From assembly GCA_965242925.1 (NCBI GenBank), contig CBDEUM010000014.1, positions 448,001 to 512,000 of the forward strand: a stretch of 64,000 nt of DNA, in the 5' to 3' direction. Positions 47,820 to 63,934 of the stretch are shown here, piece after piece (the first letter of the stretch is position 1; each line of letters starts with the position of its first letter). The stretch is from Roseibacillus sp. (GTDB lineage Bacteria; Verrucomicrobiota; Verrucomicrobiia; Verrucomicrobiales; Akkermansiaceae). Position numbers and translations under genes: made by a program. Below the pieces are notes generated by a model that ran no database searches, was not told the DNA's origin, and worked only from the letters and a program-made list of their open reading frames with translations.

Positions 47820-49721
47820 CTACCAGCCACCGCCACCGCCGCCGCCCCCGCCGCCCCCGCCACCGGATCCTCCACCGCCCCCGCTGCCACCGGACGATGG
47901 TGCGGTGGCCGAGGAGGCGAGGGAGTCGGTGAAACTTCCGGACAGGTCGCTCATCATCCCGCTGATCCCCCCCGAACTGCCCGAGTAATAGCTCGGGCTG
48001 TAACTGCTGTCTCCCGGCGCTCCCACCGCCGCCTGCAAAATTCTATCGAACTTTTCCGCCCATTGCTGTTCGCATCCAAGGGCCAGGGCGTAGGGAAGAA
48101 AGCTCTCAAAAAGCTCCGGGGTCTTCTCCGGGTCTTTCCGGGGAGTATACAAGCTGAGCCGCTCCTCTTCCGCCACGCTCAGGTAGTGCCGGAACCCTTC
48201 AATCTGGTCCATCACCCATCGACCCAGGCCCGTCGGGGCCTTCATCCGGTGGATAAAGATAAGATTCAGCGCATACACAATCATGCAGAGGATGAGGGCT
48301 GGCGGCGTCAACCCCATTCCCCCAGTCCCCCACTGAGCAACTACGACAGCCACTGCCATCAAAATCATAGTCATTAGCATTATTACTACGCCCGCCTTTC
48401 CTCCCTGGCGATCTACGGGGTTGAGCATCGGCAGACATCCCATGAGCCCAGCCCCTCCCATAACTAGTCCTGTAACGAAATCGATCCCCAGGAGGAACAG
48501 AATGGTTCCCACCATCGAGAGGATGAGACCCGGGATACACCAGCCGAGGTTGAGCTTGAAATGCACTTTCCTCGCCTGGGAGGCGAGAAGCTTACGGTGC
48601 GCCTCGCGAGCTTCCCCGAAGCACACGTGATTTTCATCCGAGAGTTCCAACCATATATTCCCTTCCAAGAGCCTCCTCTTGAGCTGGGATTCGTCAGTGG
48701 TAAGCGCGCCCGGAAGAGGTGAGGCGCCTCCGGAGGGAGGTGGCGGAGGCTTGGGCGTTCCCCGTAACATATAAGTGTCTCCGCTCTTCCTGATGACCGC
48801 GACCCCCTTGGCCGCCAGCCCGATCACCCCGGCGCTGAAGCAGGTATCGTCATAGCCCATGCGATCAATGTAACGCACCGCGGAAGCCGAGAGTCCCTTG
48901 GGAGGCCCGTAGAGCGGGATAATGGTCCCCTTCGCCGGGTCCTTCCCCACCTTGATCCAGGCCACCAGATAGTAAACGAGGGCTCCCGCGAGCAGCAATA
49001 ACCCCCAGGCGGCCAGGGGATGATCCCGGAAGATCGATGCCCGGGCCTCCTCGTAGGCCCGCTCCTCCAGCAGGCCGGGAGGCCACTCCAACACCACCGT
49101 CAGGTTCTCCTTCGGCCCGAACGGCCGGGTGGCCTCGATGGTGGCCCCGGTCTCGGTCACCTCGGCCCTGTAGTCCTCACCCTGTGCGCCGCGCGTCCCG
49201 GTATAGCCCCAGACCTTGGTCCCCTTGATCCCCTCCGGCAACACCACCGTGGCGCCCACCTTGTCAGCGGGGAATTCCCACTCCGTGCCATTGACGTTCC
49301 AGTAAAGGGCGTCCCGCCCCTCCTCAAGGTAGAGTTGCCGCCCCGTGCGGTAGATGATCTCGTAGGTGTAGGAGCCGGGCTTGAGGATCACCCGAGGGTG
49401 CCCGATGCGGATCCGGATCCCCCCTTGGCCGATTTCCGACGTCTCGTAGTTCTCCTGCTTCCCATCCCGCGTCACCCGCAGCACCCTGAAGGGCTTCTTC
49501 GTTTTCAGCCCGAACTTGGTCGACTGCAGGCGCGGGATATCGCGGTAAATCCCCCGCTTGATCTCATGTCCCTCGGCCCGGACCGTGATGGTCTCGGTCA
49601 CCACCAGGTCCCCGCTCTTCTCCACCACGATGTGGCTGTGGAAGGACTCGATGCGTTCGGCCGCGAGGGCGAGCGGGGCTGCCAGGGCCAAAAGAACCAA
49701 GGCAGCAAGAAAGCGGAACAT
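47820..49721 (-). CDS. DUF2207 family membrane protein (copy A)
   Basis: Signal peptide; VTETI, GIYRDIP, LYWNVNGTEW, GKDP, KAPT.LG, LPYALALG, Gly-rich tail ending in W. Confidence 0.9.
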   Translation of the reverse strand: MFRFLAALVLLALAAPLALAAERIESFHSHIVVEKSGDLVVTETITVRAEGHEIKRGIYRDIPRLQSTKFGLKTKKPFRVLRVTRDGKQENYETSEIGQGGIRIRIGHPRVILKPGSYTYEIIYRTGRQLYLEEGRDALYWNVNGTEWEFPADKVGATVVLPEGIKGTKVWGYTGTRGAQGEDYRAEVTETGATIEATRPFGPKENLTVVLEWPPGLLEERAYEEARASIFRDHPLAAWGLLLLAGALVYYLVAWIKVGKDPAKGTIIPLYGPPKGLSASAVRYIDRMGYDDTCFSAGVIGLAAKGVAVIRKSGDTYMLRGTPKPPPPPSGGASPLPGALTTDESQLKRRLLEGNIWLELSDENHVCFGEAREAHRKLLASQARKVHFKLNLGWCIPGLILSMVGTILFLLGIDFVTGLVMGGAGLMGCLPMLNPVDRQGGKAGVVIMLMTMILMAVAVVVAQWGTGGMGLTPPALILCMIVYALNLIFIHRMKAPTGLGRWVMDQIEGFRHYLSVAEEERLSLYTPRKDPEKTPELFESFLPYALALGCEQQWAEKFDRILQAAVGAPGDSSYSPSYYSGSSGGISGMMSDLSGSFTDSLASSATAPSSGGSGGGGGSGGGGGGGGGGGGGW

Positions 49722-49764
49722 CCTGCCGCCTTTCTATCTTCCGCCATGCCAAAGGGCAATCTCC
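49722..49764. repeat. 43-bp inter-gene spacer repeat, copy 1
   Basis: cctgccgcctttctatcttccgccatgccaaagggcaatctcc. Confidence 0.95.
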
Positions 49765-52410
49765 CTACCAGCCGCCACCGCCGCCACCGCCGCCCCCACC
49801 ACCGGATCCTCCGCCGCCTCCGCCGCCTCCGCCGCCACCACCACCACCGGACGAGGGGGCGGTGGAGGAGGAGGAAAGGGAGCCGGTGAAACTGCCGGAG
49901 AGGCCGCTCATCATCCCACTCATCCCGGTCCTGCCACTTCCCTCTCCTGAACCGCCAGAGTAGAAGCTCGGGCTGTAGGCGTCCCCCGAAGGGTCAATTC
50001 CTGCTGCCCTCAGGACCTCATCGAATTGATCGGCCCACTGCTGTTCGCAATCCAGTGCCAGGGCATAGGGCAGGAACTCCTCAAAAAGATCGAGGGTCTT
50101 TTCCGGGGTCTCCGGGGGTGCATAAAGACGGAGCCGGTCCCCTTCCCCTACCCTGAGGTAATGCCGGAACCCCTCGATCTCATCCATCAACCGCCGGCCC
50201 AGACGCGTCGGGGCCTTGATCAGGAGGAAGAAAACGTGATTCAAAACCATGAAGAGGAGCCACAAGGCACTGGAAACAATTCCTATTCCCTCAAGCTCGG
50301 TCCCTTTTAAGGCGAATAGGAGCACCCCTACAAATAGGACGAAAATAACGTAGAACATTATCAGAGCTCGATTGAGGGAACCGGAGAACACTCGTCGGCA
50401 AAGCAACATGAGCGGAATCAACGCAACGAACGGAAAGACGAAACGCATTGCATCAGCCTTTCCAAAACTCAAAAAAAGGCACGCCCCGAGCGACAGGAGA
50501 AGCCCCGGCAGGAACCATCCAATGTTCCGTTTGAAGTGCACCTCCTTCACCTGGGCCGCGAGAGCCTTGCGATGCTCCTTGCGGGCCTTGCCAATAACCA
50601 CGTGGTTCGACCGGTGTAGTTCTAAAGACGCACTCAACTTGAACAACCGGCCCCGGAGAATAGCCTCGTCGAAAGGGAGGGGCTGCTTCCCCTTCGCCTT
50701 CTCAAGGTGTTTTCCACTTTTCCTGAGCCAATACTTGCTTTTCTTTTCAATCTTGAGCGCACCCCTGGCCCCCAGTCCGATCACCCCGGCACTGAAGCAC
50801 TTGGCATCATAGGCCATCTCCATGATGTAGCGTGCCGCAGCAGCCGAGAGCCCCTCGGGCGGCCCATAGCGGGGAATGATGGCCCCCTTTTGGGGATCCC
50901 TTCCCACCGCCAACCAGGCCAGCAGGAAGTAAAACCCCGCCAAGCCCAACAACAGGCCACTGATGACGACTTTCGGATGGTCCCGCCCCAGCGAAAATTC
51001 TGTATGCTTTTTAGCCTGCGCATCAAGCAGACCAGGCGGCCACTCCAGCACCACCGACAGGTTCTCTCGCCTCGACAGCACGCGGCTGGTTGCAATGGTG
51101 GCCCCGGTCTCCGTCCGGACGGCCTCATAGTCTTTGCCTTCCTCCCCTCTTCTTCCGGTATAACCCCACACCTTCGTCGGCTTGATCCCCTCCGGCAGCT
51201 CAACCGTCGCGCTTACCTTATCGGTCGCAAAGTCCCACTCCGTCCCATTAATATTCCAATAGAGGACCTCCCGCCCCTCCTCGAAGTAGAGTTGCCGCCC
51301 CGTGCGGTAGATGATCTCGTAAGTGTGCTCGCCATGAGCAAGGCGGACGTCCGGGCGACCAATACGGATGCGAATCCCCCCACTCCCGAGACCGATCCGG
51401 CTTACCTCGTAGTTCTCCTGCCTGAAAGAAGAAGACCTTTCAGGACCTTTCCGCCTCACCGAAAGAACCTCGAGAGGCTTTTTCTTTTTCAGTCTCAGGA
51501 AATGAGCCAGCTTGTCGTCCGGATCTGGGTCCCCCAGCAGGGGAATATCGCGGAAAATCCCCCGCTTGATCTTACGTCCCCCGGCCCGCACCTTGATGGT
51601 CTCGGTCACCAGCAGCTCTCCGCTCTTCTCCACCACGATCCGGCTGTCAAAGGAAAGGATCCGCTCGGCCACAGTCGGTCCCAGGCGGATGCCTCCCCGG
51701 GACGGGGAGGGCCGGGACTGCCGGCCTGTGCCCGCAACAATAACAAGGTGAAGCGAGTCCGAAAGGGCGGGTGGAATCTCCACCTTGAAGCTGAGGGCCT
51801 CCTCCCTCCCGAGAGCACGGGTAGTTTCAATAGTGATTCCTGACTCGGTATGAGTGGCCTCGTAGTCCCTTCCCTCGTCCTGCCGTGTCGAGCCCAGGGG
51901 CCCGGTCTGTCCTGAGATCCTGGCGCCCTCCCATGAAAATTCCCCGGGGAATTCCACCACCGCGCTCACCTTGTCAAAGGGTAAACTCCATCCGGTCCCG
52001 TTGATAGCTCTCGACAGGTAAGGCCGGTCTCCCGCGGTAAGGCCGGCATAGTGCCGGCTGACGCGATAGACCAGCACGTAGGTGTAGGTTCCCGGGGCCG
52101 GTGCTTCACGGGGGGATCCCAACCAGACCCGGGTCACTCCCAGGTCCTTGATCCCCTGGGCCTGCCAGAACCCCTTCTCCCCGTCCCGCTCGAATCGTAC
52201 CACCCTGCCATGCATCCCGGGAGGAATGTCCCGGTAGAGGTCCTCCTCACGCTTCTTTCCCTCAAACCTGACCCTGGTGGTCTCGGTCACCAGCAGGCTC
52301 CCGCTCTTTTCCACCACGATGTGGCTGTCAAAGGACAGGATGCGCTCGGCCGCGACGGAAGCCGGGGCTGCGAGGGCCAAAAGAACCAAGGCAGCAAGAA
52401 AGCGGGACAT
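49765..52410 (-). CDS. DUF2207 family membrane protein (copy B), duplicated N-terminal domain
   Basis: AERILSFDS.IVVEKSG.LLVTET occurs twice; same C-terminal motifs and Gly tail. Confidence 0.9.
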   Translation of the reverse strand: MSRFLAALVLLALAAPASVAAERILSFDSHIVVEKSGSLLVTETTRVRFEGKKREEDLYRDIPPGMHGRVVRFERDGEKGFWQAQGIKDLGVTRVWLGSPREAPAPGTYTYVLVYRVSRHYAGLTAGDRPYLSRAINGTGWSLPFDKVSAVVEFPGEFSWEGARISGQTGPLGSTRQDEGRDYEATHTESGITIETTRALGREEALSFKVEIPPALSDSLHLVIVAGTGRQSRPSPSRGGIRLGPTVAERILSFDSRIVVEKSGELLVTETIKVRAGGRKIKRGIFRDIPLLGDPDPDDKLAHFLRLKKKKPLEVLSVRRKGPERSSSFRQENYEVSRIGLGSGGIRIRIGRPDVRLAHGEHTYEIIYRTGRQLYFEEGREVLYWNINGTEWDFATDKVSATVELPEGIKPTKVWGYTGRRGEEGKDYEAVRTETGATIATSRVLSRRENLSVVLEWPPGLLDAQAKKHTEFSLGRDHPKVVISGLLLGLAGFYFLLAWLAVGRDPQKGAIIPRYGPPEGLSAAAARYIMEMAYDAKCFSAGVIGLGARGALKIEKKSKYWLRKSGKHLEKAKGKQPLPFDEAILRGRLFKLSASLELHRSNHVVIGKARKEHRKALAAQVKEVHFKRNIGWFLPGLLLSLGACLFLSFGKADAMRFVFPFVALIPLMLLCRRVFSGSLNRALIMFYVIFVLFVGVLLFALKGTELEGIGIVSSALWLLFMVLNHVFFLLIKAPTRLGRRLMDEIEGFRHYLRVGEGDRLRLYAPPETPEKTLDLFEEFLPYALALDCEQQWADQFDEVLRAAGIDPSGDAYSPSFYSGGSGEGSGRTGMSGMMSGLSGSFTGSLSSSSTAPSSGGGGGGGGGGGGGGSGGGGGGGGGGGW

Positions 52411-52453
52411 CCTGCCGCCTTTCTATCTTCCGCCCTGCCAAAGGGCAACCTCC
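52411..52453. repeat. 43-bp inter-gene spacer repeat, copy 2
   Basis: cctgccgcctttctatcttccgccctgccaaagggcaacctcc. Confidence 0.95.
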
Positions 52454-54439
52454 CTACCAGCCGCCACCGCCGCCGCCGCCACCGCCACCGCCGGATCCTC
52501 CCCCGCCGCCTCCGCCACCTCCTCCACCTCCTCCACCGCCGCCCGAAGGGGCGGTTGAAGAGGAGGAAAGGGAGCCGGTGAAACTGCCGGAGAGGCCGCT
52601 CATCATCCCACTCATCCCGGTCATGCCACTTCCCCCTCCTGAACCGCCAGAGTAGAAGCTCGGGCTGTAGGCGTCCCCCGAAGGGTCAATTCCTGCGGAC
52701 CTCAGGACCTCATCGAATTGATCGGCCCACTGCTGTTCGCAATCCAGCGCCAGGGCATAAGGCAGGAACTCCTCAAAAAGATCGAGGGTCTTTTCCGGAG
52801 TCTCCGGGGGTGCATAAAGGCGGAGCCGGTCCCCTTCTCCTACCCTGAGGTAATGCCGGAACCCCTCGATCTCATCCATCAGCCGCCGGCCCAGGCGCGT
52901 CGGAGCCTTGATCAGGAGGAAGAAAACGTGATTCAGGCCCGCGAAGAGGAGCCACAAGGCACTGGAAAGAATTCCCATCACCTCAAGCTCGGTCCCCTTG
53001 AACGCTGATAGGAACATCGCCATAAAGAGGACCACAGCAGCATAGAATATTATCATGGCTAGATTGAAAGACCCGGAGAACAAGGACCTCCAATATACCA
53101 GCGCAATGACCGGAAGGGACATAATGAACATCATGAACGGAAGGTTGAAAGACACTGCCTCCCACTTCCCAAGACTCCAAAAAAGGCACGCTCCGAGCGA
53201 CAGGAGAAGCCCCGGCAGGAACCATCCCATGTTCCGTTTGAAGTGAACGCCGTTCACCTGGGCCGCGAGAGCCTTGCGATGCTCCTTGCGGGCCTTGCCA
53301 ATAACCACGTGGTTCGGCTGGTGCAGTTCTAAAGACGCACTCAACTCGAACAACCGGGCCCGGAGAATAGCCTCGTCGGAAGGGAGGGACTGCTTCCCCT
53401 TCGCCTTCTCAAGGTGTTTTCCCCTTTTCCTGAGCCAATACTTGCTTTTCTTTTCGATCTTGAGCGCACCCCTGGCCCCCAGTCCGATCACTCCGGCACT
53501 GAAGCACTTGGCATCATAGGCCATCTCCATGATGTAGCGTACCGCAGCGGCCGAGAGCCCCTCGGGCGGCGCATAGCGGGGAATGATGGTCCCCTTTTGG
53601 GGATCCCTTCCCACCAACACCCAGGCCAGCAGGAAGTATAACCCTGCGAAGCCCAGCAACAGGCCGCTGATGACAACTTGCGGATGGTCCCGCCCCAGCG
53701 AAAATTCCGTATTCCTTTTAGCCTGCGCATCAAGCAGGCCAGGCGGCCACTCCAGCACCACCGTCAGGTTCTCTCTCCTCGACAGCACGCGGTTGGCTGA
53801 AATGGTGGCTCCGGTCTCCGTCAGGACAGCCTCATAGTCTTTGCCTTCCTCCCCTCTTCTTCCGGTATAACCCCACACCTTCGTCGGCTTGATCCCCTCC
53901 GGCAGCTCAACCGTCGCGCTCACCTGGTCAGCGGGAAAAGGCCACTCCGTGCCATTAATATTCCAATAGAGGACTTCCCGCCCCTCCTCGAAGTAAAGCT
54001 GCCGCCCCGTCCGATACACGATCTCATAGGTGTGCTCGCCATGAGCAAGGCGAACGTCCCGACGACCAATACGGATGCGAATCCCCCACCCCCCCCATTG
54101 CCCGATCCAGCTTACCTGATAGTTCTCCTCCCTGAGAGAAGAAGCCTCTTCAGGACCTTTCCGCCTCACCGAAAGAACCTCGAGAGGCTTTTTCTTTTTC
54201 AGTCTCAGAAGATGAGCCAGCTTGTCGTCCGGTTCCGGGTCCCCCAGCAGGGGAATATCGCGGAAGATCCCCCGCTTGATCTCACGTCCCCCGGCCCGCA
54301 CCTTGATGGTTTCGGTCACCAGCAGCTCTCCGCTCTTTTCCACCACGATGTGGCTGTCAAAGGAGAGGATGCGCTCGGCCGCCAGGGAAGCCGGGGCTGC
54401 GAGGGCCAAAAGAACCAAGGCAGCAAGAAAGCGGAACAT
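52454..54439 (-). CDS. DUF2207 family membrane protein (copy C)
   Basis: Near-identical to the second domain and C-terminus of copy B except in the TM segment. Confidence 0.9.
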   Translation of the reverse strand: MFRFLAALVLLALAAPASLAAERILSFDSHIVVEKSGELLVTETIKVRAGGREIKRGIFRDIPLLGDPEPDDKLAHLLRLKKKKPLEVLSVRRKGPEEASSLREENYQVSWIGQWGGWGIRIRIGRRDVRLAHGEHTYEIVYRTGRQLYFEEGREVLYWNINGTEWPFPADQVSATVELPEGIKPTKVWGYTGRRGEEGKDYEAVLTETGATISANRVLSRRENLTVVLEWPPGLLDAQAKRNTEFSLGRDHPQVVISGLLLGFAGLYFLLAWVLVGRDPQKGTIIPRYAPPEGLSAAAVRYIMEMAYDAKCFSAGVIGLGARGALKIEKKSKYWLRKRGKHLEKAKGKQSLPSDEAILRARLFELSASLELHQPNHVVIGKARKEHRKALAAQVNGVHFKRNMGWFLPGLLLSLGACLFWSLGKWEAVSFNLPFMMFIMSLPVIALVYWRSLFSGSFNLAMIIFYAAVVLFMAMFLSAFKGTELEVMGILSSALWLLFAGLNHVFFLLIKAPTRLGRRLMDEIEGFRHYLRVGEGDRLRLYAPPETPEKTLDLFEEFLPYALALDCEQQWADQFDEVLRSAGIDPSGDAYSPSFYSGGSGGGSGMTGMSGMMSGLSGSFTGSLSSSSTAPSGGGGGGGGGGGGGGGGSGGGGGGGGGGGW

Positions 54440-54482
54440 CCTGCCGCCTTTCTATCTTCCGCCCTGCCAAAGGGCAACCTCC
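54440..54482. repeat. 43-bp inter-gene spacer repeat, copy 3
   Basis: Identical to copy 2. Confidence 0.95.
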
Positions 54483-56577
54483 CTACCAGCCCCCGCCGCC
54501 GCCGCCGCCGCCACCACCGCCGGATCCTCCCCCGCCACCACCACCGCCACCGGACGACGGTGCGCTGGCCGAGGAGGAAAGGGAACCGGTGAAACTGCCT
54601 CCCAGGTCACTCATGGCCCCGCTCAGGCTCCCCGAGGAACCCGCGTCCGAGTAATAGCTCGGGCTGTAACTGCTGTCTCCCGGGGCAACCCCCGCCGCCT
54701 GCAGGACGTCATCGAACTTCTCCGCCCACTGCTGTTCGCATCCAAGGGCGAGGGCATAGGGCAGAAAGCGCTCGAAGAGCTCCGGGGTCTTTTCCGGCGG
54801 GTTCTCCAGGTTGAGCCGCTCCTCCTCCGCTACGCTCAGGTAACGCCGGAACCCTTCAACCTGGTCCCTCACCCGTTGGCCCAGGTTCGTTGGGGCCTTG
54901 ATCAGGTGATAGAATACCTGGTTCAGGACCACCGCATAGAGCACGGCCCCCCCGACCCAGAAACTGGAGAGAACCGTCACCCCGACAAAACAGAACCCCC
55001 AGATCCCGAGAAAGAGCAGCAGCAGGAACAATCCCCCACATCCCCAATCCTTCCCCCGCTGCACTACAGAGAGCGCCACCTTGCTCACGAGGTAAACCGA
55101 TGTGAGGCTCAGGAAGAGCAGGGCGTTCAAGGTCGCCGTTGAGGGACCGGTGGCCAGGAGAAACACGAGGCCTCCCAGCAGGGAGAGGAGGAGGCCCGGC
55201 ACCCACCAGGCAAGGTTCCTGATGAAATGCACCTTCTCCACCTGGGAGGCAAGGAGCCGCTTGTGGGCCTCGAGAGCCCCCCCGATCCGGGCGTGATTGG
55301 ACTGCTTGAGCCTGAGGGATCTCGCCCCGAAGGATCCCGCCCCGAACAGTTTCTTGTGGAGACCCGTCTCGTCGGCGGTGAGAGGCTCCCCCGGGGAATC
55401 CCCCGTCCCGCTCATGTGGTTGATCATCTTGGCCAGGGCCCCTTTCCCGATGCCCTTGACGCGCAGGACGTCCTTAACCTTTTCGTAGGGGCGGGCCTCC
55501 CGGATATCTTCCGCCCGCCGCATCGAGATCCCCTTGAAGGCCTCGAGTTCCTTGACCTCTCCCTCGTTGAGAAGCTCCAGCAGTTCTCTCTCCTGGGCAG
55601 GCGTACGCGTCTTGGGATGGAGGACATACACCTTTCCGTCCTTCTCGATCGTGGCCTGCCCCTTGGCCGCCAACCCGACCACCCCGGCACTGAAGCACTT
55701 CTTGTCGTGGCCCATCTGGTCAATGTAACGCACCGCGGCGGCCGAGAGCCCCTCGGGAGGGCCATAGAGCGGAATGATGGTCCCCTTCGCCGGGTCCTTC
55801 CCCACCTTGATCCAGGCCACCAGGTAGTAAACGAAGGCCCCCGCCAGCAACACCAACCCCAGGGCGGCCAGGGGATGATCCCGGAAGAGCGATACCCGGG
55901 CCTCCTCGTAGGCCCGCTCCTCCAGCAGGCCGGGAGGCCATTCCAGCACCACCGACAGGTTTTCCTTCGGCCCGAACGGCCGGGTGGCCTCGATGGTGGC
56001 CCCGGTCCCGGTCAACTCGGCCTTGTAGTCCTGGCCCTTTGCCCCCCGCTTCCCGGTATAACCCCAGACCTTCGTCCCCCTGATTCCCTCCGGCAACACC
56101 ACCGTGGCGCTCACCTTGCCAGCGGGAAATCCCCACTCCGTGCCATTCACGTTCCAGTAAAGGGCGTCCCGGCCCTCCTCGAAGTAGAGCTGCCGCCCGG
56201 TCCGGTAGATGATCTCGTAGGTGTAGAAGCCAGGCTTCAAGAATGCGGACCTGCGCCCGATACGGATCCGGATCCCCCCTTGGCCGATCTCCGACGTCCG
56301 GTATTTCTCCTTTTTCCCGTCGCGCGTCACCCGGAGCACCCTGAAGGGCTTCTTCGTTTTGAGCCCGAACTTGGTCGCCTGCAGGCGCGGGATGTCCCGA
56401 TAGATCCCCCGCTTGATCTGGACCCCCGCGGCCCGGACCCTGATGGTCTCGGTCACCACCAGCTCTCCACCCCGCTCCACCACGATGTGGCTGTGGAAGG
56501 ACTCGATGCGTTCGGCCGCGAGGGCGAGCCGGGGCTGCCAGGGCCAGAAGAACCAAGGCAGCAAGAAAGCGGAACAT
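54483..56577 (-). pseudogene. DUF2207 family membrane protein (copy D) with HhH insertion; frameshift in the signal peptide
   Basis: ATG at 56577 gives MFRFLAALVLLALAAP then goes out of frame; one extra C at 56529-56530 relative to copy A. The rest is open to 54483. Confidence 0.8.
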
Positions 56578-56620
56578 CCTGCCGCCTTTCTATCTTCCGC
56601 CCTGCCAAAGGGCAATCTCT
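56578..56620. repeat. 43-bp inter-gene spacer repeat, copy 4
   Basis: cctgccgcctttctatcttccgccctgccaaagggcaatctct. Confidence 0.95.
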
Positions 56621-59079
56621 CTACCAGCCGCCACCGCCGCCGCCGCCACCGCCACCGCCGGAGCCCCCGCCACCACCACCGCCGGAGGAAGGGGCCGAGG
56701 AGGAGGAGGCCAGCGAGGAGCTCAGCGAGCTCCCGATTGAGGACGCGAACGAGGATCCCAGTCCCGAGACCGAGCCGGTGTAGTAACTGGGGGTCCAGCC
56801 TGAACTGCCCGGGGACTGCCCTGCGGCGCGCAGGACGGCATCGAACTTTTGCGACCACTGCTGCTCACACCCGAGGGCCAGGGCGTAGGGCAGGAACTGC
56901 TCGAAGAGCTCCGGGGTCTTCTCCGGCGGGTTCTCCAGGTTGAGTCGTTCCTCTTCCGCCACGCTCAGGTAGTGCCGGAACCCTTCCACATGATCCAGGA
57001 CCTTGCGCCCGAGGGGGGTTGGCGCCTTGATCAGGTGATAGAAAATCAGGTTCAGCACCGCTGGGTAGAGGAGCGCCGTTCCCGCCCAAGGCCCGGAACC
57101 GAATACGACAAACACCGCCATACCAGCCCAGAGGAGGAACAGAGGAAGGCTCACTACTCCGTGAAGGATCGCAGACAACGTCCTGCCGTCCCGCCAGCGA
57201 GTCACCAGCTTCGAAAAGGAGAAGGAGCCCCACCAGGTTGATGCAACAGGAAAACAGGACCCAGTACCAGCCCCGTCTCCCAGGCTCCTACGGCGAGGCA
57301 GAGGACAAGGAATCCGACTGCCGTGATCAACACGCCCGGAAACCACCACCCCATGTTTCGTAGGAAGTGCGTCTTCCTAAGCTTGCGCGAGATCCTGAAC
57401 TCATGGGCCTTGCGAGCCCCCCTGATTTTCTTCCAGTTCTCATCCTCCAGGACGATTTTGCCGCTGCCCACCAGTTTATCGCAGAGGGCCCGCTCCTCAG
57501 GGGTGAGCGTGGAAGGCAGCGGGGGAGGGCCCCCGGAGGGCAGCGGGGGAGGCTTGGATCTCTTGCGAACCGTGTAGGTGCCTCCGCTCTCCTTGATGGT
57601 GACCACCCCCTTCGCGGCCAGGCCGAGGAGCCCGGCCGCCATGCAGGTCTCGTCGTATTTCATGCGGTCGAGATACCGCACCGCCCCGGGGGAATACCCG
57701 GCGGGAGGAGCGAACTGTGGAATGATCACCCCCTCCTTGGGATCCCTGCCCACCGCCACCCACGCGAGGAGGTAATACACCAGGGCCCCGGCGAAGAGCG
57801 CGAGGCTGAACACCACCCAGGGGTGGGCCTCCAGGAAGGAGTCTTCCTCGTAAGCGACGGGAGCCAGCCGTCCCGGCGGCCACTGGAGCTCCAGGGTCAG
57901 CTTCCCCCGCGCCTTTGTCGCGAACTTTGCTCCCCTCGGCGTGACCTCCGCCTGCGTCCCCGCTGGGACCCGGCCCAACGTGCCCTGGATCCCCTCCGGC
58001 AGTTCCACCGTGGCGCTGACCTTGTCCACTGGAAAGGTCCCTCCCCAGTCGCGCCCCTGCCATTTCAGCAGGTGGTTCAGTTTCCAACGGAGGACTTCCC
58101 GGTCCTTGAGGAGCAGGAGCTGCCGTCCCGTCCGGTAGGTGATCTCAACGGTGTGGACCCCCCACTCCACGAACTGCCCGGTATTCACTACCCCATCCCA
58201 GGAGGTATCTGAGTTGGCCTCCTTTCCGTTCAGCTTCACCTCCAGCACCTCCAGGGGCCTTTTCCTCTTCAAGCCCCACCGGACGTCTTTCTGGCGGGAA
58301 AACGGACGGAGGAACTGCCCCTCAAAGCGGGCCTCAATGCGTTCGGTGACCAGCAGGTCACCGCTTTTCTCGACCTTGATCAAACTGTCGAAGGACAGGA
58401 CCCGTTCGTGCTCGTAGGCCCGACGGTCCAGCAGCCCCGGCGGCCACTCCAGCATCACCGTCAGGTTCTCCTTCTCCCGGAACGGGCGGGTGGCCTCGAT
58501 GCTGGCCCCGGTCCCGGTCACCTCGGCGCTGTAGTCCTCGCCCTGTGCGCCGCGCCTCCCGGTGTAACCCCAGATCTTGGTCCCCTTGATGCCCTCCGGC
58601 AATTGCACCGTGGCGCTCACCTCGTCAATGGGGAATGGCCACTCCGTGCCATTGACGTTCCAGTAAAGGGCCTCCCGGCCCTCCTCGAGGTAGAGCTGCC
58701 GCCCGGTCCGGTAGGTGATCTCGTAGCTGTAGGTCCCGGGATCGAGGAACACCTTGGCGCGCCCGATGCGGATGCGGAGCCCATTCTTAATCCGTTCCCT
58801 CACGTAGTTTTCCTTCTTCCCGTCCCGCTTCACGGAGAGCACCGTAAAACGCTTCGTGGACCGCAGGCCCCCTTTGCCTTCCCGCTGGACAGGCAGGTCA
58901 CGGAAGATCCCCCGCTTGATCTCCTTCCCCTCGGCCCGGACCGTGATGGTCTCGGTCACCAGCAGGTCCCCGCTCTTCTCCACCACGATCTCGCTGTGCC
59001 AGGACAGGAAGCGCTCGTCCGCCAAGGCAACCGACGTGGCCAGGACCACGGAAACCAGGACAGCAGGAAGGCGGATCAT
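56621..59079 (-). pseudogene. DUF2207 family membrane protein (copy E), duplicated N-terminal domain; frameshift near 57210-57265
   Basis: ORF 57202-59079 holds the N-terminal domains up to the second TM; ORF 56621-57349 holds IKAPT...LPYALALG...Gly tail in another frame. Confidence 0.8.
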
Positions 59080-59144
59080 CCTTTCACCCTACGCAACCTC
59101 GCTCGCAAAACATCAATCTTTTCCCAGCCGCCGCGATTGGACCG

Positions 59145-60443
59145 TCAACACGACGCATTCAAGGCCTCATGGAAGCGTCCATTCACCTGCAGGGTGGATC
59201 CGGTTCCCGGCCCCGCAAGATCTCCCCCGAACCCGGGGGAAGGCGTTCCCGATTCCCGCCGGTTCGCCAGCACGGACTCGAATCGCTGGGACCAGTTCCC
59301 GGCGCACCCGAGGGCGACCGCATAGGGAAGAAGCTGGTCGTGATGCTCCGCGCTCATCTCCGGGGCGTAGACTTGAAACTTAGAATCCGACTTCCGTTCC
59401 CCACCCGTATACATCTGGAGACCTTCGATGTAGTCCTGCGCCATGCGCCCCTTCCGCGAGTAGCGCTTCAGGAGGTTTGCCCCACGAGCATTCAGCACGT
59501 AGCCGAACAGCATCCACCCGGCGACCCGCAAGAATCCTGCACCGGTATACAGATCGAGCGTCACTTTCACGAGCATGACCCCGAAGGCCACCCCGAGAAA
59601 ACCAAGGCCAAGACCGGGTTCCATGTCCCGTCGTCGCAGCATGATGACACTCCCGTGGAGAAAGAAGATCACCAGGGCCCAGAATAAAGCAACCATCCCC
59701 CCAAATACTGCCCTTACCAGCAACACCATCTCCGCCACGTTGCTGGCGATTCTACTTTCGAGCACCACAGGGTCCATGTTGAGAAGCCCCGCTCCGAAAA
59801 GGGAAATCAACACCCCGATCCAAACCCACCACCGGTTATGCGTCCGGTAGCCCTCGCCTCGTTTCAGTTGCTCGTCCAGCTGCCTCCGCAAGCCCGCTTC
59901 AGCCGCCCTTAAAAAGGTCATATGTTCGCTATGCCCCAGGGTGAGCCTCCCACGCGGCGCATCATTGAGACCCAGGCTGGGGACGTGAAACAGGGCGTTG
60001 TAGACGATCTCTTCATCCGGCAGGAGCTCTACGGTTCCCACTCCCCGGTCGTGAAGCAGAAAGGTGCTTCCATTCTGCTCGATGGTCACGACCCCCTTTC
60101 CCGCCAACCCCACCACCACCGTGGTAAAACACCCATCGTCATACCCGATCGGGCAATCCTCGATACTCCAGAGATAGCGCAGGGCGGCGGGGGAATATCC
60201 CGCCGGGGGTTCATGTTTCGGCCCCCCGGCCGCCTTGTGGCGATCCCAGCCCACCAGCAGCCAGGCCACAAGGTAGAACCCCATCGCGCCGAGGAGGATG
60301 ACCTCGCCCATGACGAAGGGGGAGTGTTCTCCCCAGAGGGACTCGAGTCCCCCGGGAAGAGCAGAAGCAGTTGTCCCCATGAGGCTCTCCGCCGGGTGAG
60401 CGGACGAAGCGGAAAGAACAGGGACAAACGGTAAACAGGACAT
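59145..60443 (-). CDS. Divergent DUF2207 protein, membrane/C-terminal half only (copy F)
   Basis: FYLVAWLLVGWD, PPAGYSPAALRYL, GLAGKGVVTIE, LLPYAVALG; no periplasmic N-terminal domain and no Gly-W tail. Confidence 0.75.
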   Translation of the reverse strand: MSCLPFVPVLSASSAHPAESLMGTTASALPGGLESLWGEHSPFVMGEVILLGAMGFYLVAWLLVGWDRHKAAGGPKHEPPAGYSPAALRYLWSIEDCPIGYDDGCFTTVVVGLAGKGVVTIEQNGSTFLLHDRGVGTVELLPDEEIVYNALFHVPSLGLNDAPRGRLTLGHSEHMTFLRAAEAGLRRQLDEQLKRGEGYRTHNRWWVWIGVLISLFGAGLLNMDPVVLESRIASNVAEMVLLVRAVFGGMVALFWALVIFFLHGSVIMLRRRDMEPGLGLGFLGVAFGVMLVKVTLDLYTGAGFLRVAGWMLFGYVLNARGANLLKRYSRKGRMAQDYIEGLQMYTGGERKSDSKFQVYAPEMSAEHHDQLLPYAVALGCAGNWSQRFESVLANRRESGTPSPGFGGDLAGPGTGSTLQVNGRFHEALNASC

Positions 60444-60463
60444 CGCTTCTCACTAATACGGTC

Positions 60464-61036
60464 TCATCCACCCTTCAGGGCCGTGGCAAGATCGGGGGGC
60501 AGGCGCTCACTGGCGGTTTCCACCTCGAAAAAATCCCCGACCTCAAAGCCAAACCGGCCTGCCACCAGGTTGGAGGGAAAGGACTCGATCGCGTTATTGA
60601 GATCGCGCACCGAGCCGTTGTAGTAGCGCCGGGCATACTGGATCTGATCCTCGATTTCGACCAGGTCCCCCATCAATCCGCGAAACGACTTGTCAGCCTT
60701 CAAGTCCGGATACGCCTCCGCCAGCGCCACGATTTTGCCCAGGTCCCGGCCCAGGACCTTCTCCGCTCCCCCCACTTCGCCTGCTCCCCTCGCAGCCTGG
60801 GCCTCCGTTCTCTCCCGCACCACCGCCTCCAGGAGCCCCCCCTCGTGACTCTGGTAGCCCTTGACGCATTCCACCAGGGCGGGGACGAGCTCGTGCCTCC
60901 GCTTGAGCTGCACCTCGATTCCGCTCCAGCCTTCCCGCATCTGGTTCCGGGCCTTCACCAGCTTGTTGTAAATCAGGATGACGGCGGCCACGAAGATGAC
61001 CACCGCCATGCCGAGGGAGATTAGAACGGTTTCCAT
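60464..61036 (-). CDS. lemA: LemA family protein
   Basis: YNKLV..RN, WSGIEVQLKRRHELVP, EAYPDLKA, ARRYYNGSVRDLN, FPSNLVA. Confidence 0.95.
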   Translation of the reverse strand: METVLISLGMAVVIFVAAVILIYNKLVKARNQMREGWSGIEVQLKRRHELVPALVECVKGYQSHEGGLLEAVVRERTEAQAARGAGEVGGAEKVLGRDLGKIVALAEAYPDLKADKSFRGLMGDLVEIEDQIQYARRYYNGSVRDLNNAIESFPSNLVAGRFGFEVGDFFEVETASERLPPDLATALKGG

Positions 61037-61066
61037 CCAAGCAGGAGGCCCAGTCTGCACCGCAAC

Positions 61067-61088
61067 TTTGGCATTTCGAAATGCCAAA
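61067..61088. promoter_or_regulatory. Perfect 22-bp palindrome in the divergent lemA/mlaE intergenic region
   Basis: TTTGGCATTTC-GAAATGCCAAA. Confidence 0.7.
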
Positions 61089-61107
61089 ATAGGATTTAAA
61101 CCTAGTC

Positions 61108-61905
61108 GTGGTCTATTTCCGCCTTCTCGGCCGACTCGCCCTGAGGTTCTTCCTCTACCTCGGCGAGCTGGCTGGCCTTATCGGGCAGGTCTGCGAATCG
61201 CTCCTGCGCGGTCGGAAGCGGTGGCGCCAGTTCTTTGAACAGATCGTGGAGATCGGTTACCGGTCCCAGATCGTGGTGGTCATCACCGGCGGGTTCACCG
61301 GCGCGGTCCTGGCCGTGCAGGCTCTTTTCCAGTTCGCCCTGGTCGACATGGAAACGATGGGGGGAGTGATCGTCAGCGTCGGGATGATGCGGGAGCTGGG
61401 ACCAACCATCACGGGACTGATGCTGGCCGGCCGGGTGGGTTCCTCCATGGCGGCTGAGATCGGCACCATGAAAGTGACCGAGCAGATCGACTCCCTCCGC
61501 TCCATGGGCGTGCATCCCATCGACTACCTCGTCACCCCCCGCCTGCTTGCCATGTCTGTCTCCATCCCGCTCCTGATCGCCCAGTCGATCGCCTTCGGGA
61601 TCATCGCCTCCTACATGGTCGGAGTCCACCTCTTCAAGGTCCCGGGATCCTACTGGAACTTCAACGTGGAACGCTTCACCGACGGGACCGACATCGCCAT
61701 CGCCATGATAAAGGGCCTCGTCTTCGGCCTGCTCATCGTGATCATCTCCTGCCACCAGGGGTTGCGAGCCCGAAACGGGGCGGTGGGAGTGGGCCGGGGC
61801 ACCACTGACGCGATGGTCTTCTCCTCGCTCGCCATCCTGATCTTTAACCTGTTGCTCACCATGCTCATGCAGCTCATCTTCCCGGTCGGCATGACCATGA
61901 CCTAG
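61108..61905 (+). CDS. mlaE: MlaE family ABC transporter permease
   Basis: RELGPTITGLMLAGRVGSSMAAEIGTMKVTEQIDSL, GAVGVGRGTT. Confidence 0.93.
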   Translation: MVYFRLLGRLALRFFLYLGELAGLIGQVCESLLRGRKRWRQFFEQIVEIGYRSQIVVVITGGFTGAVLAVQALFQFALVDMETMGGVIVSVGMMRELGPTITGLMLAGRVGSSMAAEIGTMKVTEQIDSLRSMGVHPIDYLVTPRLLAMSVSIPLLIAQSIAFGIIASYMVGVHLFKVPGSYWNFNVERFTDGTDIAIAMIKGLVFGLLIVIISCHQGLRARNGAVGVGRGTTDAMVFSSLAILIFNLLLTMLMQLIFPVGMTMT

Positions 61906-61996
61906 AATTTCCCCGCGAACTGCTCCGGAAACGGGAAATCCGGCCCGGTCCGCCGAATGGGGCGATCGGAATAATGGGCCGAATCCAAGCCGTGTT

Positions 61997-62025
61997 TTGA
62001 CAGGTTCTCCCTGCCGGGATACCTT
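61997..62025 (+). promoter_or_regulatory. Sigma70 promoter upstream of the msrB fusion
   Basis: TTGACA-N17-TACCTT, 10 nt before the ATG. Confidence 0.65.
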
Positions 62026-62035
62026 ATTCCACGAG

Positions 62036-63181
62036 ATGAAGAGTGCTTCCAGAATTGCCGCCGTGGCCCTCACCGCGAGCATGGCCGTCCTCCAGCTTTC
62101 CTGCGGCGATGCCAGTAGCGACGGCAAGGAGGGGGGCTCAACCAAGGAGAACCCTGCCCCCAAGGTCGAGAAGAAGGCCCCCGCCCAACCCCCCAAGCTC
62201 GGGAGCAAGTCCGAAGAAGAGAGGACGAAGATCCTCACCCCCGCAGAGGAGGCCGCGCCACCCGGGGACCTGGAAAGCCATGTCGTCGGTTACTGGGCTC
62301 CCGATGCCGAGGCCATAATGAAGGAAATGGAGGAGAAGTTTAAGGATTCCCCCGATGAACTGGCTGCCTCCAAGGCCATGAAGGCGCCCATGATTAACGC
62401 ATTGGCGTTCGAGATTCCTGAGAAGGGAACGATGGTCATGCACATGATGGGGGATTCCCGGAGCATGTCCTACACCGTCAAAACCGTCGATGAGGCAACG
62501 AAGACGCTCACCGTGGAAATCACCGGCCCCGATGGGGAAACCGAATCGGGGTCTATCATCATCGGGGAAGACAAGCTCAGGCTCTCGAGTGGGGATGAGG
62601 AGGAGGATGGTCTCTCCCTGGTTCGCATCGACGAGGTAGCCTTCAAGAAGCGCCAGGTGGTCCTGCCCAACATCCTCGACCTGCCCGAGGGGCCCGTCAA
62701 AAAACCAGCCACCGAAAAACCAGCCACCCCCAAACCCCCCAAGCTCGTGAGCAAGTCCGAAGAAGAATGGAAGAAGATCCTCACCCCCGAACAATTCGCA
62801 ATCCTGCGCAAGCACGGAACCGAGCGCCCCTGGGGCAGGGCCTACGATGAGTTCAAGAAGCAGGGCGAGGGCGCTTATCACTGTGCCGGGTGCAATGCGG
62901 AACTCTTCTCCTCCAAGGAGAAATTCGACGCCCGCTGCGGGTGGCCCTCCTTCTTCGACACTTCCAAGCACGAGAACATCAAGACCGTGCGTGACGCCTC
63001 CTTCGGAACCGTCCGGGTGGAGGTGAGATGCAATGTCTGCGATGGGCACCTCGGACACATTTTCACCGGAGAGGGCTACGACACGCCCACCGACCAGCGC
63101 TACTGCATCAACGGCGAGGTGCTGAAGTTCGTCCCCAAGGCTGCGGCCGGGAACGGTGCTTCCAAGGGGAAGGACAAGTAA
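62036..63181 (+). CDS. msrB: Lipoprotein: unknown domain fused to peptide-methionine (R)-S-oxide reductase MsrB
   Basis: Lipobox LQLSC; C-terminal GTERP, CAGC, GWPSF, CNVC.GHLGHIF, RYCING. Confidence 0.9.
   Translation: MKSASRIAAVALTASMAVLQLSCGDASSDGKEGGSTKENPAPKVEKKAPAQPPKLGSKSEEERTKILTPAEEAAPPGDLESHVVGYWAPDAEAIMKEMEEKFKDSPDELAASKAMKAPMINALAFEIPEKGTMVMHMMGDSRSMSYTVKTVDEATKTLTVEITGPDGETESGSIIIGEDKLRLSSGDEEEDGLSLVRIDEVAFKKRQVVLPNILDLPEGPVKKPATEKPATPKPPKLVSKSEEEWKKILTPEQFAILRKHGTERPWGRAYDEFKKQGEGAYHCAGCNAELFSSKEKFDARCGWPSFFDTSKHENIKTVRDASFGTVRVEVRCNVCDGHLGHIFTGEGYDTPTDQRYCINGEVLKFVPKAAAGNGASKGKDK
62187..62789 (+). repeat. 57-bp direct repeats at 62187-62243 and 62733-62789 (4 mismatches)
   Basis: Encode PPKLGSKSEEERTKILTP and PPKLVSKSEEEWKKILTP; offset 546 bp, in frame. 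Confidence 0.9.
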
Positions 63182-63199
63182 CCGTTTCCGGTCAACGGC

Positions 63200-63934
63200 A
63201 TGAGACCCGTGATGTGGAGAGTTCCCCTGCTGCTGTTCCTTGCTCTGACGACGCTGGCCTGTTCAGACCAGGCTGACGAGCGCATCCTGTCCTGGCACAG
63301 CAAGATCGTGGTGGAGAAGAGCGGGGACCTGGTGGTGACCGAGACCATCACGGTCCGGGCCGAGGGGAACCGGATCAAGCGGGGGATTTTCCGTGACATC
63401 CCGCGCCTGCGAGAGGGTCGGAAAGAAAAGAATCCCTTTGAAGTGCTCTCCGTTAAGCGGGACGGAAAGAAGGAGAACTACCGGACGGAGAAAATCGGCC
63501 AAGGCGGAATCCGCATCCGCATCGGACACGCCAAGGTGTTCCTCGACCCCGGGTCCTACACCTACGAGATCACCTATCGGACCGGGCGGCAGCTCTACTT
63601 TGAGGAGAAGCGGGATGCCCTCTACTGGAACGTCAATGGCACGGAGTGGGAATTCCCCGCTGACAAGGTGAGCGCCACGGTGGTGTTGCCGGAGGGCATC
63701 AAGGGGACCAAGGCCTGGAGCTATACCGGGACGCGCGGCGCACAGGGTGAGGACTACAGGGCCGAGGTGACGGAGACCGGGGCCACCATCGAGGCCACCC
63801 GGCCGTTCCGGGCCAGGGAGAATCTGACGGTGGTGCTGGAATGGCCCCCGGGACTGTTAGACGCCGCTGCCTACGAGAACCAGACGGGTCAGCGGGCCAA
63901 GGACGACCCCCCCTCCAAGGGACAGAAGCAGTAG
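63200..63934 (+). CDS. Stand-alone DUF2207 N-terminal domain, predicted lipoprotein (copy G)
   Basis: LTTLAC lipobox; ERILSWHS...LEWPPGLLD then a short polar tail; no TM or Gly tail. Confidence 0.85.
   Translation: MRPVMWRVPLLLFLALTTLACSDQADERILSWHSKIVVEKSGDLVVTETITVRAEGNRIKRGIFRDIPRLREGRKEKNPFEVLSVKRDGKKENYRTEKIGQGGIRIRIGHAKVFLDPGSYTYEITYRTGRQLYFEEKRDALYWNVNGTEWEFPADKVSATVVLPEGIKGTKAWSYTGTRGAQGEDYRAEVTETGATIEATRPFRARENLTVVLEWPPGLLDAAAYENQTGQRAKDDPPSKGQKQ

Follow-up and report, generated by a model that had tools for sequence, protein, structure and literature searches.

A recombining array of DUF2207 genes behind lemA in a marine Roseibacillus, a plausible repertoire of inner-membrane LemA partners

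The window analysed here, 64,000 nucleotides of contig C14 of a Roseibacillus genome (G000; 4.58 Mb in 42 contigs, 90% complete), carries lemA followed by six co-oriented DUF2207 genes, g1 to g6, on the minus strand (47820-60443, 12.6 kb), and a seventh, gX, on the plus strand past mlaE and msrB (63200-63934), a layout that had been described in a sequence-only reading and is reproduced by our analysis. Copy number and mosaic make-up of this row very probably differ among close relatives through RecA-type recombination at a junction repeat of about 180 bp. Taken as a whole, the locus is probably a recombining array that supplies a repertoire of inner-membrane LemA partners, whereas the narrower proposition that variants of the membrane bundle form a selected repertoire holds only a slight edge. 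Contigs near-identical to the window come from seawater and marine metagenome runs.

Organisation of the array

The lemA gene lies directly 5' of the DUF2207 row and on the same strand, as in the known lemA-DUF2207 pair; its ATG start (190 residues) fits the homologs, and a TTG at 61087 is likewise open. The array comprises the following features.

lemA, 60464..61036, minus strand: single copy, heads the array; PF04011 (E 5e-48), homologs of 190 residues
g1 (type A), 59145..60443, minus strand: membrane and C part, without N domain and without Gly tail; mosaic
g2 (type B), 56621..59079, minus strand: two N domains; reading frame interrupted near 57245, in this assembly alone
Junction spacer 1, 56578..56620, minus strand: 43 bp
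g3 (type D), 54483..56577, minus strand: one N domain and a helix-hairpin-helix-like insert; reading frame interrupted near 56528, in this assembly alone
Helix-hairpin-helix-like insert of g3, 55422..55571, minus strand: predicted cytoplasmic domain; PF12836 (E 4e-5, 23.9 bits, below the cut-off of 27)
Junction spacer 2, 54440..54482, minus strand: 43 bp
g4 (type E), 52454..54439, minus strand: recent sister of g5 that lacks the first N domain
Junction homology block 3, 52311..52489, minus strand: end of the Gly tail, spacer (52411-52453), signal peptide and first N-domain codons
g5 (type E), 49765..52410, minus strand: two N domains
Junction spacer 4, 49722..49764, minus strand: 43 bp
g6 (type S), 47820..49721, minus strand: one N domain; end of the array
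T segment of g6, 48246..48548, minus strand: predicted transmembrane helices TM2-TM5; fastest-evolving module

Profile matches above cut-off place PF09972 (N domain) and PF20990 (C domain) in g2 to g6, the match in g2 spanning two frames, while g1 has the PF20990 C domain only and gX the PF09972 N domain only; the number of N domains is accordingly none (g1), one (g3, g4, g6 and gX) or two (g2 and g5), just as the sequence-only reading had it. Its single junction type also stands: five genes, g2 to g6, are joined by four junctions that each consist of a Gly-rich tail, TAG, a 43-bp spacer and the same signal peptide, within a homology block of about 180 bp spanning gene end and intergenic region. 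The description of long blocks as near-identical between copies was an overstatement, since copies are 81-90% alike (g4/g5 89.5% over 2.1 kb, g6/gX 84.6%, g2/gX 82.7%, g3/g6 80.9%) and the longest exact block shared by copies in the window is 92 nt. A search of the genome for similar DNA found no further stretch.

The helix-hairpin-helix-like insert is annotated on several homologs and marks type D, in g3 as in the type D genes of relatives.

Haplotypes within the species

A scan for the junction motif returned nine loci on eight metagenome contigs, so that the haplotypes compared here are assembled contigs chosen by that motif, not long reads. In three of the loci (L056, L057 and L060) identity to the window is 98.4-99.0% for lemA and 99.1-99.7% for mlaE; judged by these two genes, they are likely of the same species. 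The order of their genes differs: L056 reads g1-g2-g3-g4 up to its cut end, L057 reads g1-g2(starred)-g5-g6, and L060 reads g1-g2(starred)-g3-g5 up to its cut end, with g3 missing from L057 and g4 from both L057 and L060. Moreover, on its upstream side L057 follows the first junction of L060 and on its downstream side the second, with the change-over falling within about 180 bp and with two private differences; junction homology block 3 is the interval that contains this crossover.

Variation along these haplotypes is concentrated at the head of the array. With about 25 kb of flanks as the same-species background control, mean identity to the window is 80-93% for g1 and g2, 96-99.7% for the flanks and 98-99% for g3 to g5 where present; tiles below 95% number 17/25, 21/25 and 18/24 in g1 and g2 and 0/6, 2/37, 6/39 and 2/54 in the flanks. 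While g2 varies most between haplotypes, g1 is also highly variable, and the membrane bundle of g6 has two alleles in the population. In addition, g6 is fused to g3 sequence in a contig from run X9, and the membrane segment of g6 is divergent in run X10. Sparse contig coverage of g4 (X9 and X10) and missing coverage of g5 (X2) were not counted as evidence, and the raw-read runs X21 and X22, with 56 and 19 reads, are too shallow for the joints.

Copy number and paralog types in the genus

Among the other genomes of the genus, PF09972 has a match in 16 of 19 and PF20990 in 17 of 19. The comparison covered 20 regions, and copies were counted only where the stretch from lemA to atp is complete, other arrays being cut by contig ends; the nine complete arrays at the mlaE-lemA...atp locus hold 6 (the window), 5, 4, 4, 3, 3, 3, 1 and 1 DUF2207 copies. 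The comparison across relatives that the sequence-only reading had proposed as a check thus reveals an array varying from one to six genes, not one fixed array. Outside the genus, among the loci listed, a single DUF2207 open reading frame is found at 40 of 42, with one fragmented gene and one locus with two genes making up the rest, and a separate lemA stands beside DUF2207 at 35 of the 42.

In trees of the M and C modules, genes of one paralog type from different species fall together, so that the types are old. The same comparison shows that gX is an old, separately placed paralog and not an inverted cassette of the array, as had been supposed, because it has the N domain only and gX-type genes occupy the same place 3' of msrB in relatives. 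A full-length gene stands at this position in some relatives, and the N domain of gX shares recombination tracts with the array.

Several side observations concern individual genes. In G001 and G011 the type A gene (L013 5422-7764; L014 4199-6544) has a C-terminal extension of about 300 residues with an extra hydrophobic stretch and a repeat-like end, and L052 and L055 carry a tandem pair of type B genes, a duplication unseen in the window. The signal of gX ends in a Cys, which we take to be a candidate lipoprotein site; relatives have full-length or non-Cys forms at this position.

Mosaicism and exchange between species

Painting of the array genes reveals patches of 100-300 nt from other paralogs and from other species, and the pairwise homoplasy index (PHI) test gives p 0.001 in three array sets, compared with 0.90 for mlaE and 0.07 for atpB. 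Module trees conflict as well: in approximately unbiased (AU) tests, for which the groups were named after the trees had been seen and the N, M and C trees are quick trees, the starred clade of type D in the M tree is rejected in the N tree (p 4e-5), the pair of g3 with gene 3 of G014 is rejected in N (p 0.003), and the pair of g3 with g6 is rejected in M (p 0.008). In line with this, g3 and its G014 ortholog differ by a synonymous divergence (dS) of 0.02-0.09 in M, T and C and of 0.60 in N. The part of the sequence-only reading that called the array expanding, contracting and shuffled by recombination is therefore upheld by haplotypes, AU and PHI tests and painting alike.

Exchange reaches across species. 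Between G000 and G014 the background has a median identity of 74%, with 136 of 304 1-kb fragments aligned (20 regions of G014), and over g1 to g3 seven of twelve 500-nt tiles are 93-97% identical; fourfold sites differ at 66 of 131 positions in mlaE and at 0/62 to 12/56 in the M, T and C modules of g1 to g3. The same excess identity is seen between gene 4 of G014 and the lone gene of G009, and for two genes between G001 and G004.

Two observations lie outside the array. The atp operon of related lineages (L054 1-7750; L055 1-5250) is a patchwork of 73-100% identity to the window, pointing to interspecies recombination in housekeeping genes too, and L043 14001-20000 compared with contig C31 of G000 is 92-98% identical between G014 and G000 against the 74% background, with several frame changes in G000.

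Proposed mechanism

Unequal crossing-over between junction blocks, which would add or drop whole genes, together with gene conversion, which would bring in short tracts from paralogs and incoming DNA, is the simplest route. The DUF2207 paralogs would then constitute a repertoire of predicted inner-membrane LemA partners, differing mainly in a four-helix membrane bundle (TM2-5). A functional link between DUF2207 and LemA, possibly in envelope repair or remodelling, is suggested by gene order together with the reported membrane-remodelling role of LemA proteins (bioRxiv 10.64898/2026.10.21.759321, whose main text has no occurrence of '2207'). The bundle may serve as an intramembrane recognition site whose variants are kept by differing membrane-acting agents such as toxins, phage entry proteins or lipids, although any naming of the selecting agent is doubtful. 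A broader version, in which a genus-wide interspecies pool of DUF2207 cassettes feeds one LemA hub for inner-membrane surveillance or immunity against membrane-inserting toxins or phage entry, with the junction repeat as exchange site, is unlikely. No toxin gene was found among the immediate flanks (lemA, mlaE, msrB and atp), and no cognate toxin or phage came to light.

Selection and the variable module

For the ratio of nonsynonymous to synonymous rates (dN/dS, omega), the N domain gives 0.12-0.33, M 0.15-0.30, C 0.05-0.27 and T 0.35-1.47, T being the highest module in six of six paralog types; control values are 0.025 for mlaE and 0.077 for atpB, and 0.025-0.085 for mlaE, atpB and lemA together. 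A home-made M1a/M2a comparison, which takes no account of recombination or of misalignment in gapped helices, detects a positive class in T of four of six types, in none of four N sets and in one of two M sets, which also passed the p 0.05 threshold. The per-region analysis that had been suggested hence places the fastest change in TM2-5, with the outward N domain under purifying selection.

Motif content sets the array genes apart as well. A Trp motif in TM3 occurs in 49 of 59 more distant homologs vs 6 of 63 T segments, all six of the ancestral type; this motif and a Pro-Phe..Gly-Glu motif in TM4 are absent from all five window T segments scored (g1 and g3 to g6) and from the g2 alleles of other contigs. 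By these two motifs, read off a consensus and defined after the fact, the window genes appear not to be of the canonical single-copy DUF2207 type.

The most serious rival is neutral birth-and-death, in which a recombining lineage prone to duplication builds up copies of a gene it can do without. The junction repeat would then be a side effect, and relaxed selection would let the bundle drift; we consider this a real, if unlikely, possibility. Several results count against our interpretation of the array, and a good part of them is what this rival would predict. G000 has many other tandem repeats, tandem duplications and paralog clusters, and single-copy relatives exist. Interspecies patches also occur in the background: three of the 136 aligned G000/G014 fragments are 96-98% identical, the atp operon of L054 has patches of 98-100%, and lemA has a PHI p of 0.006, which extends exchange beyond the array. 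As for T, no whole-segment omega is significantly above 1, three being below 1 and three indistinguishable from it; the ancestral single-copy type also has its highest omega in T (0.22), and all modules evolve faster in the array than in that type, a pattern that fits relaxed selection. Once 12 tests are corrected for, the positive class in T, a result that recombination can inflate, remains in types S and D only. Furthermore, junction and signal peptide are homogenised in each of G000, G012 and G014, while the copies in G001, G004 and G011 have distinct ones, and the two junctions of L060 have 134 exact bases in common, so that in motif-chosen assembled contigs a single gene skip could be assembly collapse. 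Neutral drift fits less well with paralog types that persist across species with open frames, with omega values of 0.05-0.33 in N, M and C, with a positive class in T that survives correction in two types, and with the variability of g1 and g2, which lies far above that of the flanks in three haplotypes.

Protein architecture and location

In the structure model of g6 (predicted local distance difference test, pLDDT, 81.6), a signal helix is followed by a beta-sandwich (22-214), then by TM1 and a soluble domain, and then by four further helices (392-492); another soluble part and a Gly tail, which is disordered, complete the chain. Basic residues crowd the TM3-TM4 loop (2.65 per segment vs 0.29 and 0.41), and by the positive-inside rule this fits a predicted inner-membrane topology in which the N domain faces the periplasm and the M and C parts lie in the cytoplasm. 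Verrucomicrobiota cells have two membranes, and the predicted signal peptide, beta-sandwich and five membrane helices therefore point to the inner one.

Fold comparison adds little about function. The N-domain model matches the lumenal domain of ribophorin I/Ost1 (6c26; Z 14.0, root-mean-square deviation, rmsd, 2.9 over 169 residues) and M1 peptidases (Z 11-12.6); it resembles the ribophorin I/Ost1 lumenal and M1 aminopeptidase N-terminal domains in fold, with 11-18% identity, but the DUF2207 genes have no catalytic domain, and the common fold shows no function. The cytoplasmic part is weakly similar to GOLPH3/Vps74 (GPP34; Z 6.8-7.3, rmsd 4.5-5.1 over 163-181 residues). For the C part Foldseek gave no match, and fold search otherwise returned only generic helical bundles; the sequence search for solved relatives yielded none beyond Gly-tail noise, and the structure atlas search gave unnamed clusters only, under 0.9. 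A complex prediction for LemA with g6 scored 0.00 and weighs neither for nor against binding.

These predictions bear on the idea of a surface receptor repertoire, put forward in the sequence-only reading, which would vary via its outward N domain and evade phage adsorption or predators. N domains are indeed swapped and vary in number, and phages can use inner-membrane proteins for DNA entry; the protein is nevertheless predicted as a five-helix inner-membrane protein, and its N domains are homogenised, purifying and without a positive class in four of four sets, the fastest module being T in every type. Surface diversification is thus improbable, and that part of the earlier proposal is not sustained.

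Recombination machinery and assembly

RecA is present in the genome and the window yielded no recombinase, which agrees with homologous recombination that needs no enzyme of its own, the default that had been proposed. A programmed cassette system of integron-like or shufflon-like kind, in which a site-specific recombinase acts on the 43-bp spacer, is very improbable: the junction is precise, repeated and supplied with a small inverted repeat, and whole genes are dropped, yet the three tyrosine recombinases lie off-locus (contigs C13, C30 and C31), no serine recombinase or reverse transcriptase (PF00078, as a diversity-generating retroelement would have) has a match in the 90% complete genome, where no linked site-specific recombinase of the integron or shufflon kind was seen, crossovers fall at differing points of the block and also within the N domain, and the spacer sequence differs from species to species.

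Across the genus, spacers often begin with TTG, with a TA some 12-15 bases ahead of the ATG, a pattern that might act as a leaderless promoter for each cassette. A consensus scan found no promoter in the 43-bp spacer and there was no Rfam match; a genome-wide motif count was dropped, as it is confounded by choosing open reading frames on nearby in-frame stops.

Equally improbable is an origin of the array, or of its variation, in faulty assembly of a mixed population. The assembly does contain frame errors: g2 has 2 extra bases near 57245 and g3 has 1 near 56528, breaking both frames. Those of g2 are missing in contigs of four of eight metagenome runs (the other runs have no coverage there) and in L056, L057 and L060, that of g3 occurs in none of the four loci compared, and frame changes also affect 5 of 95 orthologs tested from other parts of the same assembly; for these reasons both breaks are likely assembly errors. 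Furthermore, no metagenome contig aligned to the window spans the array, the g4-g5 join is observed in the window only, and a 603-nt exact repeat in G014 permits collapse and could account for the absence of its type D gene from L053, which was accordingly not counted as a deletion. In contrast, the window has no exact repeat longer than 92 nt, joins 1-2-3-4 (L056) and 5-6 (L057) are reproduced by independent contigs, the L057 junction has private differences, and arrays recur in many genomes of the genus.

Flanking genes and other repeats

gX, 63200..63934, plus strand: N domain only, 3' of msrB
mlaE, 61108..61905, plus strand: PF02405; conserved flank, used as control
msrB (SelR) with N-terminal extension, 61997..63181, plus strand: PF01641; flank

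The extension of msrB is long and contains a 67-bp stretch twice (62177-62243 and 62723-62789); contig C42 has a partial msrB paralog. Elsewhere in G000, contigs C29, C30, C33 and C34 hold more tandem-paralog clusters and long direct repeats, many of apparently secreted repeat proteins.

Relation to known systems

With the usual lemA-DUF2207 pair the locus has families (PF04011 with PF09972 and PF20990) and gene order in common; it differs from that pair, which has one DUF2207 gene with the conserved Trp motif, in having up to six mosaic genes without it. The pair is mentioned in passing in PMC12631010, and loss of the DUF2207 protein SMU.243 lowers stress tolerance in S. mutans (PMC10457818). 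No report of such a DUF2207 array was found in a literature search outside which subscription journals mostly lay.

The closest parallels come from Firmicutes. As described in PMC9484751, S. aureus esaG and streptococcal tipC form arrays of immunity genes to type VII secretion system (T7SS) toxins in which, among members of one species, recombination between homology blocks changes copy number and makes chimeras. The present array resembles them in its tandem non-identical paralogs, its blocks spanning gene end and intergenic region, its copy-number change and its chimeras, here from assembled contigs; unlike these systems with known T7SS toxins, it consists of modular genes of about 2 kb behind lemA in Verrucomicrobiota, and its cassettes are common to species about 74% alike. 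A second parallel, in the discussion of the same paper, is the S. aureus lpl cluster of the nuSa-alpha island, where copy number varies by recombination in a conserved block of about 130 nt and the unit spans two neighbouring genes. Recombination in a conserved block and a unit across two neighbouring genes are likewise seen here, but lpl encodes surface lipoproteins and recombines in a central block, whereas the DUF2207 products are predicted polytopic inner-membrane proteins and the main block lies at the gene junction.

Concluding remarks

The locus thus adds to a marine Verrucomicrobiota lineage a recombining array of the esaG and lpl kind, with cassettes that appear to cross species boundaries. 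The manner of array change is known; the protein family, the intramembrane variable part and the interspecies pool would be new. For DUF2207, a widespread and nearly unstudied family, the array points to the TM2-5 bundle as the part likely to carry specificity, and it offers natural alleles and chimeras of that bundle.

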